Virus record (IMG/VR): IMGVR_UViG_3300032258_000007
Location: 1 to 33,662 of that record
Length of the DNA stretch: 33,662 bases
Source of the DNA: a virus
Lineage: Duplodnaviria; Caudoviricetes
Direction: 5' to 3' (one strand)
The stretch's first letter is position 1; each line of letters starts with the position of its first letter. Below the pieces are notes generated by a model. That model was not told the origin of the DNA. It worked only from the letters and a program-made list of their open reading frames with translations, and did no database searches. Both the position numbers and the translations under genes were made by a program. Below, piece after piece: positions 10,452-31,612 of the stretch.

Positions 10452-10742
10452 TTATCCGCCAGCGAAAACATTACCTGAGCCAACAACAACAGTTGAACCA
10501 CATGCTACTGGGTCTCCAATTCTTCCAAGTTGAACACCATTGACGAAAACGGTAGCACTGCCGCTAGCAAGTGTTGAATCATGACAAACTGGAGTAGGGT
10601 CACAATGAGTTACCCAATGGTCTCCTTGTCTGTGAGCACCAATTCCATTTACGAAAACGTCACTACTTGCTGAATCATTCGCCCTAGGTGGAAAAGCACC
10701 GTGGCCGGAGCAAGTATCTCCTAATCTACAAACGCCTGGCAT
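10452..10742 (-). CDS. PAAR spike-tip protein (T4 gp5.4-like)
   Basis: RLGD.CSGH..FPPR, VFVNG..AHR.GD, H C..H, GS.TVFVNG...GRIGD...CG, GS.NVF.G. Confidence 0.93.
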   Translation of the reverse strand: MPGVCRLGDTCSGHGAFPPRANDSASSDVFVNGIGAHRQGDHWVTHCDPTPVCHDSTLASGSATVFVNGVQLGRIGDPVACGSTVVVGSGNVFAGG

Positions 10743-10750
10743 ATTTCCTC

Positions 10751-11278
10751 CTAGTACCTTGTACTGAAATATGTATCAGTCCAAGTTTTAATCATGTCAT
10801 AAGTCTGAGTGACAGTGAAATCAAAAGTCTCAATATAATCAGCTACAAAAACTCCACCGTCTGTCACTGTGGTTGTTACTGTGCAACTCAGTACAATACT
10901 TGTTCTGCCATCAATCGCAATACTATAAACTTCTTTAAAATCTGGTACTGCAGACAATATTGAAACTACTGGAGTCTGTGTTGTGTTTGACTCTCCTTGG
11001 TCAACATAAGTGGCGCTGTACTGATCAAAATAATCAATAGGAGCAGTACCGGTAATTGCAACAGCGCATGTAGTATCAGTAAAACTTGGTGTTAATGTTA
11101 AGTTCAATCCTAAATCGAACCCACCGTATGGTACCCAAACAGCTGAACATGCTGTAATAATGTCAGTTGTATCTGGAGTATAAAGTCCAGAAATATTGAA
11201 ATTCACAGGAGACCCAACTGCAACTGACCCCAGAGATGCTGGATTAGGACCTGCCGGTGTCCAGACAAATGTTGCCAT
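10751..11278 (-). CDS. hypothetical virion protein (gp5.1 position)
   Basis: Coupled to gp5, lies between gp5 and PAAR, and is beta-rich. Confidence 0.65.
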   Translation of the reverse strand: MATFVWTPAGPNPASLGSVAVGSPVNFNISGLYTPDTTDIITACSAVWVPYGGFDLGLNLTLTPSFTDTTCAVAITGTAPIDYFDQYSATYVDQGESNTTQTPVVSILSAVPDFKEVYSIAIDGRTSIVLSCTVTTTVTDGGVFVADYIETFDFTVTQTYDMIKTWTDTYFSTRY

Positions 11279-23326: not shown

Positions 23327-24742
23327 ATGGAAAACATCCAAGCTTTACTTGAAAGTTCTAAGTATACTCCATTGTCTGCAACTGATACTGCTTCAATGAA
23401 GATGATGCTTGAGAACACTGAAAAAGAACATGATCGCCTACTGCGTGAGGGCACCTTGACTGGTGACGTTCAGGGTTTCACCCCTATCCTTATGCCTATG
23501 GTTCGTCGTGTTTATCCTAACCTGATTGCTAATGAGCTTCTAGGTGTACAGCCAATGGCAATGCCAACTGGTTTCATCTACGCTCTTACTAACCAGTACA
23601 CTGGTGATGGCGTAATTTCCGCTAATCCTAACAGTGCTGCTCAGGTTGTGGACTTTACCCTTACAGCTGGTGACTTGACTGGTGGCGAACTTGCTATCGG
23701 TTGTGAAGTTACTGGTAACGTATCTTCTGCTGTAGGTATTGTTGCTCACGTTGAAACTACTGCGGCTGGTGTTGTAAAAGCACTTATCGTAACTTCATCT
23801 GGTGCATTCACTACTGCTGATACTGCTGCTACTCTTACCCAGGCTGACGGTACTACCGCTTCAACTGGTACACTTGCTGTTGATGCTACTTACTCTAACG
23901 AAGCGGCTTTCGGCCACATTCTGAAGAACTACACCGGTACTTATTCTACTGCAGCTGCTGAACAGCTTGCAATGGATATGAAAGAGATTGGCTTCTCTAT
24001 CGGGCGTAAGCAAGTTACTGCGCGTTCACGTGCATTGAAAGGCCAGTACACTGTTGAAATGTATCAGGATCTTAAATCTCAGCATGGTCTACTTGCTGAT
24101 GAAGAGATCATGAGCCTAATGTCTTACGAGATGCAGGCTGAAATTGACCGCGAGGTTGTTGACTTTGTTAATAACATCGGTAACTCTCATGGTCTTGCTG
24201 ATACTGCTTTCACTGCTCCATCTACTACCCCTAACACAGACGGTGGCCGTTGGGAGATTGAAAAATATCGTGTTCAGGCAATCCGTATTGCTAAAGAATC
24301 TGCTCAGATTGGTCTTGGCACCAAGCGTGGTCAGGGTAATATCCTGATTGTATCACCTAAGGTTGCAACTATGTTGGAACAGGTTGGTTCATTCAAGACT
24401 GCTCCTCAGACTTCAGGTGTTACTCAGCCAGTTTCTGGTGGTATCGCTGGTACCTTCGATAACAAGTTCAAAGTTGTTGTTGATCAGTATGCTGTTTCTG
24501 ACTACTGCACTGTACTTTACAAGGGTGCTGACCGTCGTGACGCTTTGGGCTTCTTCGCTCCATACGTTCCTATGTCATTCACCAAGGTTACTAGTTTCGA
24601 ATCTGGTCAGCCTGCTGTAATTGCTAAAACTCGTTACGCTCTTGATACTATTCCAGGTATCTCTAGTGAGACATCTACTGACCGTGCGGCTCTATACTGC
24701 CGTTCATTCGGTGTTAACTTCGCAAATACAATCCTAGCGTAA
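23327..24742 (+). CDS. gp23: major capsid protein gp23
   Basis: P.L.PMVRR..PNLIA..L.GVQPM..PTG.I.AL, V.ARSRALK..YT.E..QDL...HGL.A..E, EI.REV, TKRG.GN, G.F.APYVP, QP....KTRY. Confidence 0.97.
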   Translation: MENIQALLESSKYTPLSATDTASMKMMLENTEKEHDRLLREGTLTGDVQGFTPILMPMVRRVYPNLIANELLGVQPMAMPTGFIYALTNQYTGDGVISANPNSAAQVVDFTLTAGDLTGGELAIGCEVTGNVSSAVGIVAHVETTAAGVVKALIVTSSGAFTTADTAATLTQADGTTASTGTLAVDATYSNEAAFGHILKNYTGTYSTAAAEQLAMDMKEIGFSIGRKQVTARSRALKGQYTVEMYQDLKSQHGLLADEEIMSLMSYEMQAEIDREVVDFVNNIGNSHGLADTAFTAPSTTPNTDGGRWEIEKYRVQAIRIAKESAQIGLGTKRGQGNILIVSPKVATMLEQVGSFKTAPQTSGVTQPVSGGIAGTFDNKFKVVVDQYAVSDYCTVLYKGADRRDALGFFAPYVPMSFTKVTSFESGQPAVIAKTRYALDTIPGISSETSTDRAALYCRSFGVNFANTILA

Positions 24743-24764
24743 GCTAAGACTATTGCTTAATATG

Positions 24765-24792
24765 GCCGGGGCCCTTCGGGGCTCCGGTTTTT
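24765..24792 (+). terminator. Rho-independent terminator after gp23
   Basis: GCCGGGGCCC-TTCG-GGGCTCCGGT followed by a T-run. Confidence 0.85.
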
Positions 24793-24997
24793 AAGTCTGT
24801 GGGGTTCTCTTCCGGTTGTGATTATTGATTACTTCCAAGTCTTTTGCTGCTTGGTTAAGCCATCCCTTATATGCTAATTCAGCATAATCACCACTGCTCA
24901 TCTTAGTAACTTCAGGGGATAGTGTCGCTTTATTACCCTTATGATACTCAAACGCGAGCAATCTTGCTAGTACTTCTTGTTGTGTTCTATCGCACAT
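24791..24997 (-). CDS. hypothetical protein (68 aa), last gene of the accessory operon
   Basis: AGGAG RBS overlapping the stop of 25007. Lacks the YPE tail. Confidence 0.7.
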   Translation of the reverse strand: MCDRTQQEVLARLLAFEYHKGNKATLSPEVTKMSSGDYAELAYKGWLNQAAKDLEVINNHNRKRTPQT

Positions 24998-25006
24998 ATC
25001 GTTCTC

Positions 25007-25237
25007 CTAAAGAAAGTACTCTGGGTACTTTTTCTGAAAATATTTGTATTTACCTAATGGAACTATAAGGGCTTTTTCGGTAACAGAACACAATTTGTTT
25101 ACCTTGCAATCTATACATTTAATTCCAGTGTTTGTATCACCACAGAGCTGGAAATTACCAGTGTTGAATTCATACGGAATAATGCCATGATGTTTAGAGA
25201 ACTCAATGAATAGAATTTCTTGTGAATCATCTTTCAT
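25007..25237 (-). CDS. YPE-tail array gene 12: Cys4 protein, subfamily A (ends KYPEYFL)
   Basis: C-x8-C-x2-C-x5-C; paralog of 25428. Confidence 0.85.
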   Translation of the reverse strand: MKDDSQEILFIEFSKHHGIIPYEFNTGNFQLCGDTNTGIKCIDCKVNKLCSVTEKALIVPLGKYKYFQKKYPEYFL

Positions 25238-25431
25238 ATGAATTCTTCTGGATAATATTTTTTAATAACTTCCAAATCATCTTTGCTCAAATCCCAATCG
25301 CCACACGTTTCAGCAATAACGCAACCAGAACAATGAGTTCCGTGACAGAAAAGAGATTCAGCCCCTGCGTCACCAAATCTTACTTCATGGTGTTCCGCGA
25401 ATTTATAAAAGTCTTCTAGTGCTTGGTTCAT
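25234..25431 (-). CDS. YPE-tail array gene 11: Cys4 protein, subfamily B (ends YYPEEFI)
   Basis: C-x4-C-x2-C-x5-C; paralog of 25652; ATGA overlaps. Confidence 0.85.
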   Translation of the reverse strand: MNQALEDFYKFAEHHEVRFGDAGAESLFCHGTHCSGCVIAETCGDWDLSKDDLEVIKKYYPEEFI

Positions 25432-25655
25432 ATAAAGTGCTCGGGGTATCTGTCTTTTAGATATTCGTATTCTTCTTGTGTAAACGAAAACGACTCTTCT
25501 CTTTCAGAACACATTTGACTTACCTTACACTCTTGACATTGAGTACCATATTCTGAAGATCCACAAAGCTGAAAATTACCATCCGAGAGTTCAATATCTA
25601 TAACATCATGATGTTTAATGTACTCAATGAATAGAATTAATCCACCATCCATCAT
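25428..25655 (-). CDS. YPE-tail array gene 10: Cys4 protein, subfamily A (ends RYPEHFI)
   Basis: C-x8-C-x2-C-x5-C; ILFIE..KHH...GNFQLCG shared with 25007. Confidence 0.85.
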   Translation of the reverse strand: MMDGGLILFIEYIKHHDVIDIELSDGNFQLCGSSEYGTQCQECKVSQMCSEREESFSFTQEEYEYLKDRYPEHFI

Positions 25656-25849
25656 ATGAACAACTCCGGGAATTCATTTTTAATAACTTCCAAATCTTCA
25701 ACACTCAAAGTATCATTAGTACATTTTTTTGAAATAACACACTTTTCACATTCTGTTCCTAAACAAAAAAGAGGAGAATCTTGCTCATCAAAGTCAAATT
25801 CTACATTATGATGCTTTTTAAATTCGTAAAATTCTTCTAATGGTGTCAT
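25652..25849 (-). CDS. YPE-tail array gene 9: Cys4 protein, subfamily B (ends EFPELFI)
   Basis: C-x4-C-x2-C-x5-C; DLEVIK shared with 25234. Confidence 0.85.
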   Translation of the reverse strand: MTPLEEFYEFKKHHNVEFDFDEQDSPLFCLGTECEKCVISKKCTNDTLSVEDLEVIKNEFPELFI

Positions 25850-26115
25850 ATGAAGTACTCGGGGAATTCATTTTTGAACATTTCCCATGATTTAACTTCA
25901 TGCACAATCTCAATTTCTTTGTACCCAGAAGGAATATCAACCAGTACTCGCTCATCCGCTGGTGTTAAACTAATCAACTCACATAACCTTGAGACATCTC
26001 TTGCGCCGTAAGCACCATCTAGTGATACAATTCTCCCACGCGTATAGGCAGGAACCAAAGAATAAAAACCTGTATTAAAACTAGTTCTGTATTTAATAAT
26101 TTTGTACTGTGTCAT
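25846..26115 (-). CDS. YPE-tail array gene 8: non-Cys family C (ends EFPEYFI)
   Basis: YKIIKY.T.F...IV.L...YG...ELI...VD.PS...EIE.V.E shared with 26112. Confidence 0.85.
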   Translation of the reverse strand: MTQYKIIKYRTSFNTGFYSLVPAYTRGRIVSLDGAYGARDVSRLCELISLTPADERVLVDIPSGYKEIEIVHEVKSWEMFKNEFPEYFI

Positions 26116-26381
26116 AGGAAGTACTCTGGGTATTTTTCTCTGAATGACTCAATTGTTCCGATTTCTTGTACAGTTTCAATTTCTGAATTTGTACTTGGCA
26201 TATCAACCGTTTCCCATTTGTCCCTTGGAACTGAACCAATTAGTTCATATAAACTTGAAAGTTCTTTTACTCCATAAACATCATTTAATCTCACAATTGT
26301 ATCGGACATGAAACTGACACTTAAAGAATGAAAGTACTCATCTCCAAATCTAGTCTTGTATTTAATAATTTTGTACATCAT
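26112..26381 (-). CDS. YPE-tail array gene 7: non-Cys family C (ends KYPEYFL)
   Basis: Paralog of 25846, same length (89 aa). Confidence 0.85.
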   Translation of the reverse strand: MMYKIIKYKTRFGDEYFHSLSVSFMSDTIVRLNDVYGVKELSSLYELIGSVPRDKWETVDMPSTNSEIETVQEIGTIESFREKYPEYFL

Positions 26382-26656
26382 ATAAAGTACTCGGGGTATT
26401 TTTCACTTGCTGTTTTCCAAATTTCATTAACTTTGTGTTGTGTTCTGTTCCCTACATGTTCAGCAAAAACAATACCTGTATCATAAAAACCACCAACAAG
26501 TGATGGGAATTGTGAACTGCGTGCTACACACAACCCTTCTCGTTCCATTCGAGATACACCACTTTTATAAATTCCCAAGAAGATGTTGCCAGGAAGAGCC
26601 ACAATACTAAAAAAGTAGTAATGATGCTCAGTTAAGTTCATTTCCGATGTGATCAT
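26378..26656 (-). CDS. YPE-tail array gene 6: unrelated body (ends KYPEYFI)
   Basis: No Cys4 motif and no visible similarity to its neighbours except the tail. Confidence 0.8.
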   Translation of the reverse strand: MITSEMNLTEHHYYFFSIVALPGNIFLGIYKSGVSRMEREGLCVARSSQFPSLVGGFYDTGIVFAEHVGNRTQHKVNEIWKTASEKYPEYFI

Positions 26657-26862
26657 ATGAATACCTCCGGATAATGCTCCTTAATTTCTTCCTTTTCATC
26701 ATCGGTTAAGTTCACATCACCACATTTTTTATCCAGTACACAATCATCACAGGATAAGTGTGAACACATCCAACTAAGATTCGGGTCATCGCTCCACTCA
26801 AAATTCTCAATACCATGTACTCGAAGGTATTTCAATGTATGTTTTTTACCTATAGCACTCAT
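26653..26862 (-). CDS. YPE-tail array gene 5: Cys4 protein (ends HYPEVFI)
   Basis: C-x4-C-x2-C-x5-C. Confidence 0.85.
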   Translation of the reverse strand: MSAIGKKHTLKYLRVHGIENFEWSDDPNLSWMCSHLSCDDCVLDKKCGDVNLTDDEKEEIKEHYPEVFI

Positions 26863-27116
26863 ATGAACAACTCCGGTCTATCTTTCTTGAACTGTTCTAG
26901 TTCATCATCCTCGAAGTACCAGTTTCCTTTGAACTCCTCGCCAGTGCAGAATGATTCACATTTACAACCCTTGCAGAGTAAAGAACAAAAATAATTATCA
27001 CCAATCCCATCAACAATATTCAATCTTTCCCACTGAGGAGTGTAATGCTGGATGAACAACTCATACAACTCATCAACGTTGTTGTTAGGTCCCCATTTAT
27101 CAGCACCTATACTCAT
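26859..27116 (-). CDS. YPE-tail array gene 4: Cys4 protein (ends DRPELFI)
   Basis: C-x3-C-x2-C-x5-C. Start set at the ATGA overlap (27116) rather than 27122. Confidence 0.82.
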   Translation of the reverse strand: MSIGADKWGPNNNVDELYELFIQHYTPQWERLNIVDGIGDNYFCSLLCKGCKCESFCTGEEFKGNWYFEDDELEQFKKDRPELFI

Positions 27117-27316
27117 ATGCATTGCTCTGGGTATCGTTTTTTAGCTTCTTCGATATCTTCCTTTGTTAAAGTTAGATTAGTATTATCTTCATCTACATTA
27201 TCACAAAAACTTCTAATTGTGCAGTTTTGGCTACACATATAGTTCACACACAGACTTTCACCTTCCACCAGATGTGGCACATGATGTTTAATAAATTCTT
27301 CAAGAATAATATTCAT
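27113..27316 (-). CDS. YPE-tail array gene 3: Cys4 protein (ends RYPEQCI)
   Basis: FIKHH and C-x4-C-x3-C-x5-C. Confidence 0.85.
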   Translation of the reverse strand: MNIILEEFIKHHVPHLVEGESLCVNYMCSQNCTIRSFCDNVDEDNTNLTLTKEDIEEAKKRYPEQCI

Positions 27317-27522
27317 AGGAAGTACTCTGGGTATTCTTCTTTGATAATTTCCATATCATCACCACGTAATGAGTCATCACAATCTCTATATACTGGGCAC
27401 TTACTACAAAAACTGAATTGTTTATCAGCACAATGAGTCCAGTCACCATCATTGCCGCGCTCAAAAACAGGTATCTCATGAAGTACATATTTTCTAAATC
27501 TATCTAGTGGTTTCAAGCTCAT
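27313..27522 (-). CDS. YPE-tail array gene 2: Cys4 protein (ends EYPEYFL)
   Basis: C-x7-C-x2-CP-x4-C. Confidence 0.85.
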   Translation of the reverse strand: MSLKPLDRFRKYVLHEIPVFERGNDGDWTHCADKQFSFCSKCPVYRDCDDSLRGDDMEIIKEEYPEYFL

Positions 27523-27761
27523 ACGAAGTCCTCTGGGTACAGTTCCTTCAGAATTTCTTCATCATTATCTCTGTGATCAGGGGCGGCTTCTTCACCCCAT
27601 AAAGCCACACACTCTAATCCTAATGGGCAGTTTTGTCCACACCGAATATCTAAACAGTAAGTATAAATGTCATCGTGCTTAGTATTATCTAAGCATATTT
27701 CTTTCAGCTTTGCCAATTCGTAGAATTCTATTCTTTGTTCTTGTGTTGTTGGATTACTCAT
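27519..27761 (-). CDS. YPE-tail array gene 1: Cys4 protein (ends LYPEDFV)
   Basis: C-x4-C-x3-CP-x4-C. Confidence 0.85.
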   Translation of the reverse strand: MSNPTTQEQRIEFYELAKLKEICLDNTKHDDIYTYCLDIRCGQNCPLGLECVALWGEEAAPDHRDNDEEILKELYPEDFV

Positions 27762-27979
27762 AATGCAATCACCAAACCTGCTACACCTACTACAAGTATA
27801 ACCGTATTAGTTACAATCATTGCAGGTTCTTTCCAAATGATTGAAACAATCAGCCACATAAATCCACCCAGTGACAACGCAATAGCGCCAGCAGGGTAGA
27901 TATTAAATGAGTTGAGACCAGTACCGACAATCAGTACAACTGTAGCAACCCATTTAAGATATGTGGCTAATTTAATCAT
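27758..27979 (-). CDS. small membrane protein (3 TM; DUF6552-like)
   Basis: LKW.AT...I.G..L.S.NIYP.......G...W..V...W.E...IV.N pattern, common in T4-like phages. Family name recalled, not verified. Confidence 0.7.
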   Translation of the reverse strand: MIKLATYLKWVATVVLIVGTGLNSFNIYPAGAIALSLGGFMWLIVSIIWKEPAMIVTNTVILVVGVAGLVIAL

Positions 27980-28797: not shown

Positions 28798-28826
28798 ATT
28801 CTATCAGGAAATGCAGATGCTGTCAA
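28798..28826 (-). promoter_or_regulatory. strong sigma70 early promoter TTGACA-17-TAGAAT (copy 1), upstream of the YPE-tail array operon
   Basis: aaaatgg TTGACA gcatctgcatttcctga TAGAAT ... ggaaataggagat. Confidence 0.85.
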
Positions 28827-31583: not shown

Positions 31584-31612
31584 ATTCTATCAGGAAATTA
31601 CCATGCTGTCAA
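31584..31612 (-). promoter_or_regulatory. strong sigma70 early promoter TTGACA-17-TAGAAT (copy 2)
   Basis: aaaatgg TTGACA gcatggtaatttcctga TAGAAT ... ggaaataggagat. Confidence 0.85.

Follow-up and report, generated by a model that had tools for sequence, protein, structure and literature searches.

A C-terminal Pro-Glu tail shared by unrelated small proteins of T4-like and N4-like phages, and a candidate MoxR-DUF2201 reader

The IMG/VR record IMGVR_UViG_3300032258_000007, analyzed here over its full 33,662 nt (the window), comes from a T4-like myovirus that counts Vibrio phage Va1 among its relatives, and represents a 33.7-kb fragment of that genome. It carries an array of small genes on the minus strand (25007-27761) in which all 12 open reading frames (ORFs) end in a helix followed by [YFR]-P-E-x-[FC]-[ILV]-COOH. 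The bodies bearing this tail are small, soluble phage proteins that are fast-evolving and unrelated, and what they share is the one C-terminal peptide. In related genomes the tail marks up to about a quarter of the ORFs and co-occurs, across two phage families, with one lineage of a gene pair encoding a MoxR-type AAA+ ATPase and a DUF2201 protein. The tail is real, strong and, as far as searched, undescribed, while its specific reader is a candidate: we consider it somewhat better than an even bet (probability about 0.55), judging from sequence comparisons, that the tail is a docking tag for the MoxR-DUF2201 machine of the phage.

The tagged proteins and their distribution

The 12 genes of the array, in order of transcription, are as follows.

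27519..27761, minus strand: Cys-rich small protein, 80 aa, tail LYPEDFV, first in the array
27313..27522, minus strand: Cys4 small protein, 69 aa, tail EYPEYFL
27113..27316, minus strand: Cys-rich small protein, 67 aa, tail RYPEQCI
26859..27122, minus strand: Cys-rich small protein, 87 aa (probably 85, start 27116), tail DRPELFI
26653..26862, minus strand: Cys4 small protein, 69 aa, tail HYPEVFI
26378..26656, minus strand: singleton body, 92 aa, tail KYPEYFI; weak relative in contig G005
26112..26381, minus strand: non-Cys paralog pair member, 89 aa, tail KYPEYFL
25846..26115, minus strand: non-Cys paralog pair member, 89 aa, tail EFPEYFI
25652..25849, minus strand: Cys4 small protein, 65 aa, tail EFPELFI
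25428..25655, minus strand: Cys4 small protein, 75 aa, tail RYPEHFI
25234..25431, minus strand: Cys4 small protein, 65 aa, tail YYPEEFI
25007..25237, minus strand: Cys4 small protein, 76 aa, tail KYPEYFL, last in the array, TAG stop, no overlap

An initial annotation, made from the sequence alone, had reported these C-termini and coordinates and the Pro codon counts (CCA 6, CCC 3, CCG 3), all of which were reproduced, and 11 ATGA overlaps join consecutive genes. It had also noted that the last gene (25007) keeps the tail without an ATGA overlap, and that the flanking genes at 24791 and 27758 lack the tail, and both observations hold. Its motif, (Y/F)PExF(I/L/V), is followed strictly by 10 of the 12 proteins, with DRPELFI and RYPEQCI deviating. 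Pro-Glu occupies positions -5/-4 in 12 of the window's 58 crude ORFs (50 aa or longer), and these 12 are the genes of the array; the strict motif occurs ten times at a terminus and never internally. The start of gene 26859 is probably at 27116, which gives an ATGA overlap, rather than at 27122.

When the last 16 residues were removed, the bodies separated into nine Cys-rich proteins, one pair and one singleton, in agreement with the earlier claim of at least three unrelated families. The nine had all been described as Cys4 proteins, but three of them have five Cys residues. They form a loose family, several pairs reaching only z 2-5, while the bodies of the paralog pair match at z about 26 and the singleton scores z 1.7 or less against all others. 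None of the 12 proteins matched Pfam, PHROG or NCBIfam, and a profile of the Cys-rich family recovered only the window's own proteins from 5.8 billion. Matches in the ESM Atlas were all below 0.9, including a Ral antirestriction cluster at 0.85 that is a lead at best. An AlphaFold2 (AF2) model of the 25234..25431 protein (mean predicted local distance difference test score, pLDDT, 65) places a helix at residues 50-59, directly before the tail, and a fold search with this model at that confidence gave no match.

A search by DNA pattern returned 29 IMG/VR loci, of which 25 hold at least one tagged ORF, many with long arrays, in T4-like and N4-like gene contexts alike. For whole records, tails were counted as crude ORFs of at least 50 aa ending in PE-x-x-x. 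The counts were 80 of 334 in cultured Va1, 49 of 156 in the complete N4-like podovirus G001, 58 of 199 in G002, 17 of 106 in G005, 11 of 321 in G012 and 3 of 137 in Alteromonas phage AD45-P1. No such end was found in Campylobacter phage CP220 (0/197), Vibrio phage pVa5 (0/108) or Alteromonas phage PT11-V19 (0/93). BLAST sorts the 244 tagged proteins of seven genomes, 58-379 aa in length, into 220 families, of which 202 have a single member, and there may be remote fold homology among some of the bodies. Membrane-like hydrophobic stretches are present in 4 of the 244, as against 34 of 238 untagged small proteins (taken from three of the seven genomes), and the tagged proteins are accordingly predicted to be soluble and cytoplasmic. 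Among 185,579 cellular genomes the DNA pattern occurred at 26 loci. Arrays were present at three of these, all on phage-like contigs in metagenome-assembled genomes (MAGs), two of them in a Campylobacterales bin, and the remaining loci look like chance. None of 79 tagged Va1 proteins matched Pfam at the curated cut-off. A profile of the tail, run against 1.8 billion representatives, was too short and returned only two large repeat proteins (P0128, P0129), in which helix-[HN]PE[YW]F occurs internally five to nine times, probably as a common helix-cap turn.

Some further sequences at or near gene ends were noted. In one array (L041:5001-8605) the DNA after tagged stop codons is often AAG-A/G-A..CT..TGA/TAA, a second short repeat. 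A different shared helix tail, L-[LM]-E-x(1-2), closes 19 of the 108 ORFs of pVa5 (L099-L103), whose DUF2201 lies outside the clade of genomes with Pro-Glu (PE) tails. About seven small ORFs of PT11-V19 (L095-L098), a phage with no DUF2201 match, have ends resembling DDGWI, DDWI or DDWLG. Bacillus phage AR9 (L104) has Y-E-A-x-x-I-L...L near the C-terminus of five ORFs close to its MoxR and zincin-vWA genes. In myovirus loci (L113, L115, L119, L121, L128) a small conserved gene with the end F-x-E-[YF]-x-I-x-P-[YF]-N turns up repeatedly in the vicinity of DUF2201.

Selection on the peptide and its variants

The tail Glu is encoded by GAG in 11 of the 12 window genes, because the tail doubles as the ribosome-binding site of the next gene, a point absent from the initial annotation. 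GAG is found in 10 of the 11 overlapped tails, and a 47-nt repeat is present in 11 copies in the window (64-77% identity to the reference copy). Both would suit a DNA or RNA junction cassette, serving either as a Shine-Dalgarno sequence with its ATGA overlap or as a seed for recombination by which genes are shuffled, with the peptide as a by-product. Across six genomes, however, the ratio of GAG to GAA is 95:13 in tails with an ATGA overlap versus 22:86 in tails without (p 8e-25). The codon is thus GAG at overlaps, yet Glu is retained in their absence as GAA (86 of 108), which argues that selection acts on the peptide and that the Shine-Dalgarno role is secondary. Since zero entropy at the first and second codon positions is built in when tails are selected by their sequence, only third positions are informative, and outside the window those of Pro and of residue -4 are near-random. 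All four Pro codons and all three stop codons are used among the tails, and the strict motif was terminal 172 times and internal seven times.

Third positions therefore vary freely, as do the stop codon and the overlap, and no conservation of the DNA without synonymous bias is seen. Nor do the bodies make up a single homologous family, there being three families in the window and 220 among the 244 proteins. The initial annotation had argued from synonymous variation to selection on the peptide, and the third-position variation and the persistence of the tail without an overlap bear this out; the junction cassette is largely refuted by the codon data, and we rate it very improbable.

Variants of the tail point the same way. 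Contig G029 has 19 Pro-His (PH) tails and no PE tail, its His codons are CAT (10) and CAC (7), and there is neither an ATGA overlap nor a GAG, features that also speak against a cassette. Contig G031 has about 20 Pro-Gln (PQ) or PH tails and none with PE. In G024, four PE motifs continue for another 2-4 residues, and S-E forms are seen in one group of contigs. That unrelated genes switched in concert across a genome from PE to PH or PQ, using a mixture of synonymous codons, suggests one reader that is able to evolve. The proposal that the tail is a common docking signal on a variable payload is supported by the synonymous variation, the persistence without overlap, the 220 body families among 244 proteins and the concerted variants; its second part, an anti-defence role for the bodies, is without direct evidence.

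The MoxR-DUF2201 pair as candidate reader

Va1 and G001 both encode a MoxR-type ATPase (AAA_5) and a DUF2201 protein (Pfam PF13203 and PF09967, DUF2201_N and DUF2201), in which an N-terminal zincin (HExxH) is fused to a C-terminal vWA domain, and the DUF2201 gene lies among tagged genes. A search of 50,697 phage records placed the N4-like AD45 phages closest to Va1 for both proteins, its own group aside. When the 156 ORFs of G001 were compared with four tagged myovirus sequences (BLAST, E 1e-5, crude ORFs of at least 50 aa), eight matched: three apparent homing endonucleases, PhoH, NrdA, one tagged protein, DUF2201 and MoxR. PhoH is found equally in CP220, and NrdA is closer to that of N4-like phages. 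The DUF2201 of G001 scores 358 bits to Va1 versus 61 to the N4-like phage pVa5, and its MoxR 158 versus 52, and neither protein of the tagged lineage was found in the untagged CP220. With the endonucleases, PhoH, NrdA and the tagged protein set aside, only MoxR and DUF2201 are specifically shared by the tagged myoviruses and the tagged podovirus.

The association was also seen at loci chosen by DUF2201 similarity alone (144 examined; de-duplicated, at least 8 kb, with a near-full gene, shorter or partial ones being dropped). Tails were present at 32 of the 50 loci scoring at least 300 bits versus none of the 18 below, and 157 of 989 small ORFs were tagged versus none of 318. Conversely, DUF2201 was found in all six tag-selected viral contigs that are more than 35% complete, and also in a MAG. 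Among tag-selected fragments of 28% completeness or less it was found in 1 of 19, where about 1.9 would be expected from the summed completeness (L001 and L019 stand outside this count). Quick trees of DUF2201 and MoxR group the tagged genomes (Shimodaira-Hasegawa-like approximate likelihood ratio test, SH-aLRT, 99 and 96) with the N4-like ones nested among myoviruses, a label that rests on gene content for some rows and is presumed for others. The approximately unbiased (AU) test rejects a grouping of the tagged N4-like DUF2201s with pVa5 (p 0.0008) and a myovirus-only DUF2201 clade (p 0.02). [quoted passage not shown] MoxR and a MIDAS-intact vWA partner occur in the same genome in Va1, G001, G002, G012, G029, G031 and AD45. 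G012 is the closest complete syntenic relative of the window, and in G012 and Va1, which carry both MoxR and DUF2201, the two genes lie 45-50 kb apart (DUF2201 of G012 at L201:10325-11584). A conserved tagged protein of 309-379 aa adjoins MoxR in three myovirus genomes (L065:10648-11787, L198:18186-19115, L178:18453-19394); it looks nucleotidyltransferase-like by eye, has no Pfam match, and is possibly the original client.

Under the docking reading, the helix-aromatic-Pro-x-hydrophobic tail would dock on a MoxR-DUF2201 complex, in which DUF2201 would be the adaptor on the ATPase hexamer, as CbbO and NorD are in their systems, gripping the helix-Pro-hydrophobic tail. The ATPase would then pull the tagged protein, and the peptidase may cut either that protein or its bound partner. 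In one version the tagged protein would itself be an adaptor or handle, each body binding its own target, from host or phage, while the tail plugs the body into the machine; in the other the tail would be a plain degron by which early proteins are cleared. Current data fit both, and the adaptor version is slightly favored, such numerous and variable bodies pointing to adaptors or payloads, although a few larger tagged proteins, including the one of 309-379 aa beside MoxR, fit substrates better. A more ambitious picture, possible but doubtful at present, is a platform comparable to a cullin ligase with interchangeable receptors. Dozens of small hypervariable proteins would each bind another host factor or defense protein, and a constant C-terminal box would plug them into one phage-encoded MoxR-vWA-zincin machine by which the target is pulled apart or cut, with box and machine co-evolving (PE, PH, PQ) and having moved together between myoviruses and N4-like podoviruses.

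Several observations weigh against the MoxR-DUF2201 assignment. Neither gene was found in the 33.7-kb window itself, so that the link rests on relatives. Within the clade, the number of tails varies widely (3 of 137 in AD45-P1, 0-1 in G021 and G022), AD45, G017, G019, G021 and G022 having few or none. G021 and G022, both incomplete, are without a MoxR match, and 18 of the 50 in-clade DUF2201 loci are without a tail within 10 kb. The 300-bit profile was built from the tagged clade and the genomes are related, so the statistics overstate independence, and the real contrast is one cross-family transfer. Phages N4, YH6 and 2-L372D have a distant pair of gp24/gp25 type, or a related one, with no evident common tail (32-45 kb read in each), PT11-V19 has a different tail and no DUF2201 match, and a tree under LG+G4 leaves AR9 not cleanly outside the tagged clade (77). 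Glu at position -4 is the common form, but it is replaced genome-wide by His or Gln in G029 and G031 while DxSGS stays intact. The His and Gln tails, together with the 2-4 extra residues of G024, mean that a simple contact of Glu with Mg, or of the free carboxylate, misfits some lineages. No compensating residue for the change from PE to PH or PQ was found in the reader, and a small or fast-evolving shared reader may have been missed by BLAST. The His and Gln variants argue against tail Glu as the MIDAS ligand, which had been considered first. DUF2201 residues K207 and R282, considered as compensating positions, were rejected, as they are also changed in G002 with its 58 PE tails.

Other readers can be envisaged. 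A conserved host protein (ClpXP, Lon, FtsH, a chaperone or the sliding clamp) might recognize the tail as a degron or docking motif, with MoxR and DUF2201 merely travelling along. The tagged proteins are soluble and host degrons can also have a hydrophobic C-terminal end, but position -3 of the tail is too variable for a sliding-clamp motif. Phage adaptors of host AAA+ proteases are on record (SPO1 Gp53, PMC6873191). We nevertheless consider a host reader unlikely, as the hosts or bins of the carriers differ (Vibrio, Alteromonas, a Campylobacterales MAG), other Vibrio and Alteromonas phages are without the PE tail, and the concerted switches to PH or PQ require a quickly evolving reader. Still less probable is that the tail serves to load virions, as a C-terminal equivalent of the T4 capsid targeting sequence (CTS), so that the proteins would be packaged and injected, MoxR-DUF2201 being possibly the loader. 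The array does adjoin gp23 in the window, but the tail is common to myoviruses and N4-like podoviruses, between whose head proteins BLAST gave no match, none of 45 gp23-relative loci of at least 9 kb is tagged near gp23, and none of the shorter loci is either. A genome may have about 80 tagged species, some of 300-380 aa, and 9 of the 12 window proteins have an isoelectric point of 4.8 or less, whereas the T4 internal proteins are basic. In favor of loading, the T-even internal proteins are described as diverse defense inhibitors with only the targeting sequence in common (PMC3012670), and Iyer et al. proposed that the MoxR/peptidase-vWA pair acts in assembling the virion (PMC7824862). A virion proteome of a tail carrier was not found in the literature.

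The initial annotation had offered capsid packaging or injection, binding to one shared host or phage partner, and proteolysis. Binding to one shared phage partner fits best, with MoxR-DUF2201 as the candidate, while capsid targeting through gp23 or gp22 is weakened by the tail's presence in N4-like podoviruses and by the untagged gp23 loci. That partner could also be another phage protein, too small or divergent for detection. The sole screen was BLAST on crude ORFs, and PT11-V19 has a tail without DUF2201, but two genes 45-50 kb apart (in Va1 and G012) both track the tail across families, which leaves such a protein a lower probability again than host or virion recognition.

Related systems and genome context

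Short peptides at the extreme C-terminus plug unrelated proteins into one hub in the sliding-clamp tails of T4 gp43, gp55 and gp33 and in SspB-type AAA+ adaptor tethers. Those have a different consensus and occur on a handful of proteins, against dozens here, and no tagged DNA polymerase subunit was found in Va1. The T-even CTS is N-terminal, is cleaved and targets the prohead core, whereas the present tail is C-terminal and spans two phage families. The internal proteins of T-even phages (IPI locus) are otherwise alike in being small and diverse with only a short address peptide in common, and a proteolysed mature form is mentioned (PMC3012670). They are the nearest concept, but their defining N-terminal CTS is absent here: no common N-terminal sequence was found across the three body families of the 12 window proteins, and the shared element is C-terminal.

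The candidate reader belongs to the MoxR/peptidase-vWA pairs (MoxR-type AAA_5 with DUF2201_N/DUF2201, HExxH and MIDAS) described in group 2.2 jumbo phages (N4 gp24/gp25 type). A virion-assembly role was proposed for these, and no clients or tag are named in the accessible part of that paper (PMC7824862, Iyer et al. 2021). The difference is that one lineage here is accompanied by a C-terminal tail on the scale of the proteome, while N4 has none in its first 32 kb. Among cellular systems, CbbQ-CbbO and NorQ-NorD likewise combine a MoxR hexamer with a vWA adaptor that grips the client. CbbO acts on behalf of CbbQ as substrate adaptor, activation depends on an exact, position-critical motif at the C-terminus of Rubisco, and an 11-mer peptide on its own stimulates ATPase activity (PMC4660213). 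NorD, for its part, binds to the hexamer of NorQ and uses the MIDAS to bind its target (PMC9976466). Each of these serves one dedicated client, and no peptidase domain is described in the accessible portions of either paper (PMC4660213, PMC9976466). There the MIDAS ligand is reported as a separate surface acidic residue, unlike the phage tails, which are borne by dozens of unrelated proteins and in which His or Gln may stand in place of Glu.

No description of the tail was found in the literature, most subscription journals and all supplements being outside the scope of the search, and in the main text of the Pv27 paper the terms 'C-terminal' and 'ATPase' never occur (PMC12063606). What is new from the window comprises the Cys-rich body family, the PH and PQ dialects, the cultured carriers and the cross-family tree tests. 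The docking reading would assign as much as a quarter of the hypothetical proteins in Va1 and, by near identity, in Pv27 and phiKT1024 to one testable class of function, and it proposes clients for the widespread and uncharacterised phage MoxR/DUF2201 pair. The PE, PH and PQ variants are a built-in specificity-swap experiment. If the adaptor version is true, the system would be a phage form of programmable protein remodeling or degradation, and the six-residue tail a search key for host-takeover and counter-defense genes.

The features surrounding the array are the following.

23327..24742, plus strand: major capsid protein gp23 (67% identity to Va1), context only
24763..24793 (boundaries approximate): GC-rich terminator-like hairpin between gp23 and the converging small-gene operon
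28798..28826, minus strand: sigma-70-like promoter site TTGACA-17-TG-TAGAAT, consensus match only

The capsid protein is 67% identical to those of Va1 and its group, and 46-47% to those of Campylobacter Firehammervirus phages, and relatives do not keep tagged genes next to it. The array belongs to a gapless run of minus-strand genes (28771 to 25007) that is headed by the sigma-70-like site and converges on gp23. That site has a near-identical twin at 31584-31612, about 50 nt being common, including the downstream GGAAATAGGAGAT. Promoter-like sites as a whole are not enriched in the window (23 versus 25 expected), only the twin sites being singled out, and in other genomes a strict pattern gave 0-2 sites per genome, which is uninformative as to early-promoter enrichment. 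The untagged gene directly upstream of the array (27758-27979) encodes a DUF6552 membrane protein, and in the baseplate region (10452-11278) a PAAR gene adjoins a 175-aa gene whose weak PHROG match bears the label toxin.

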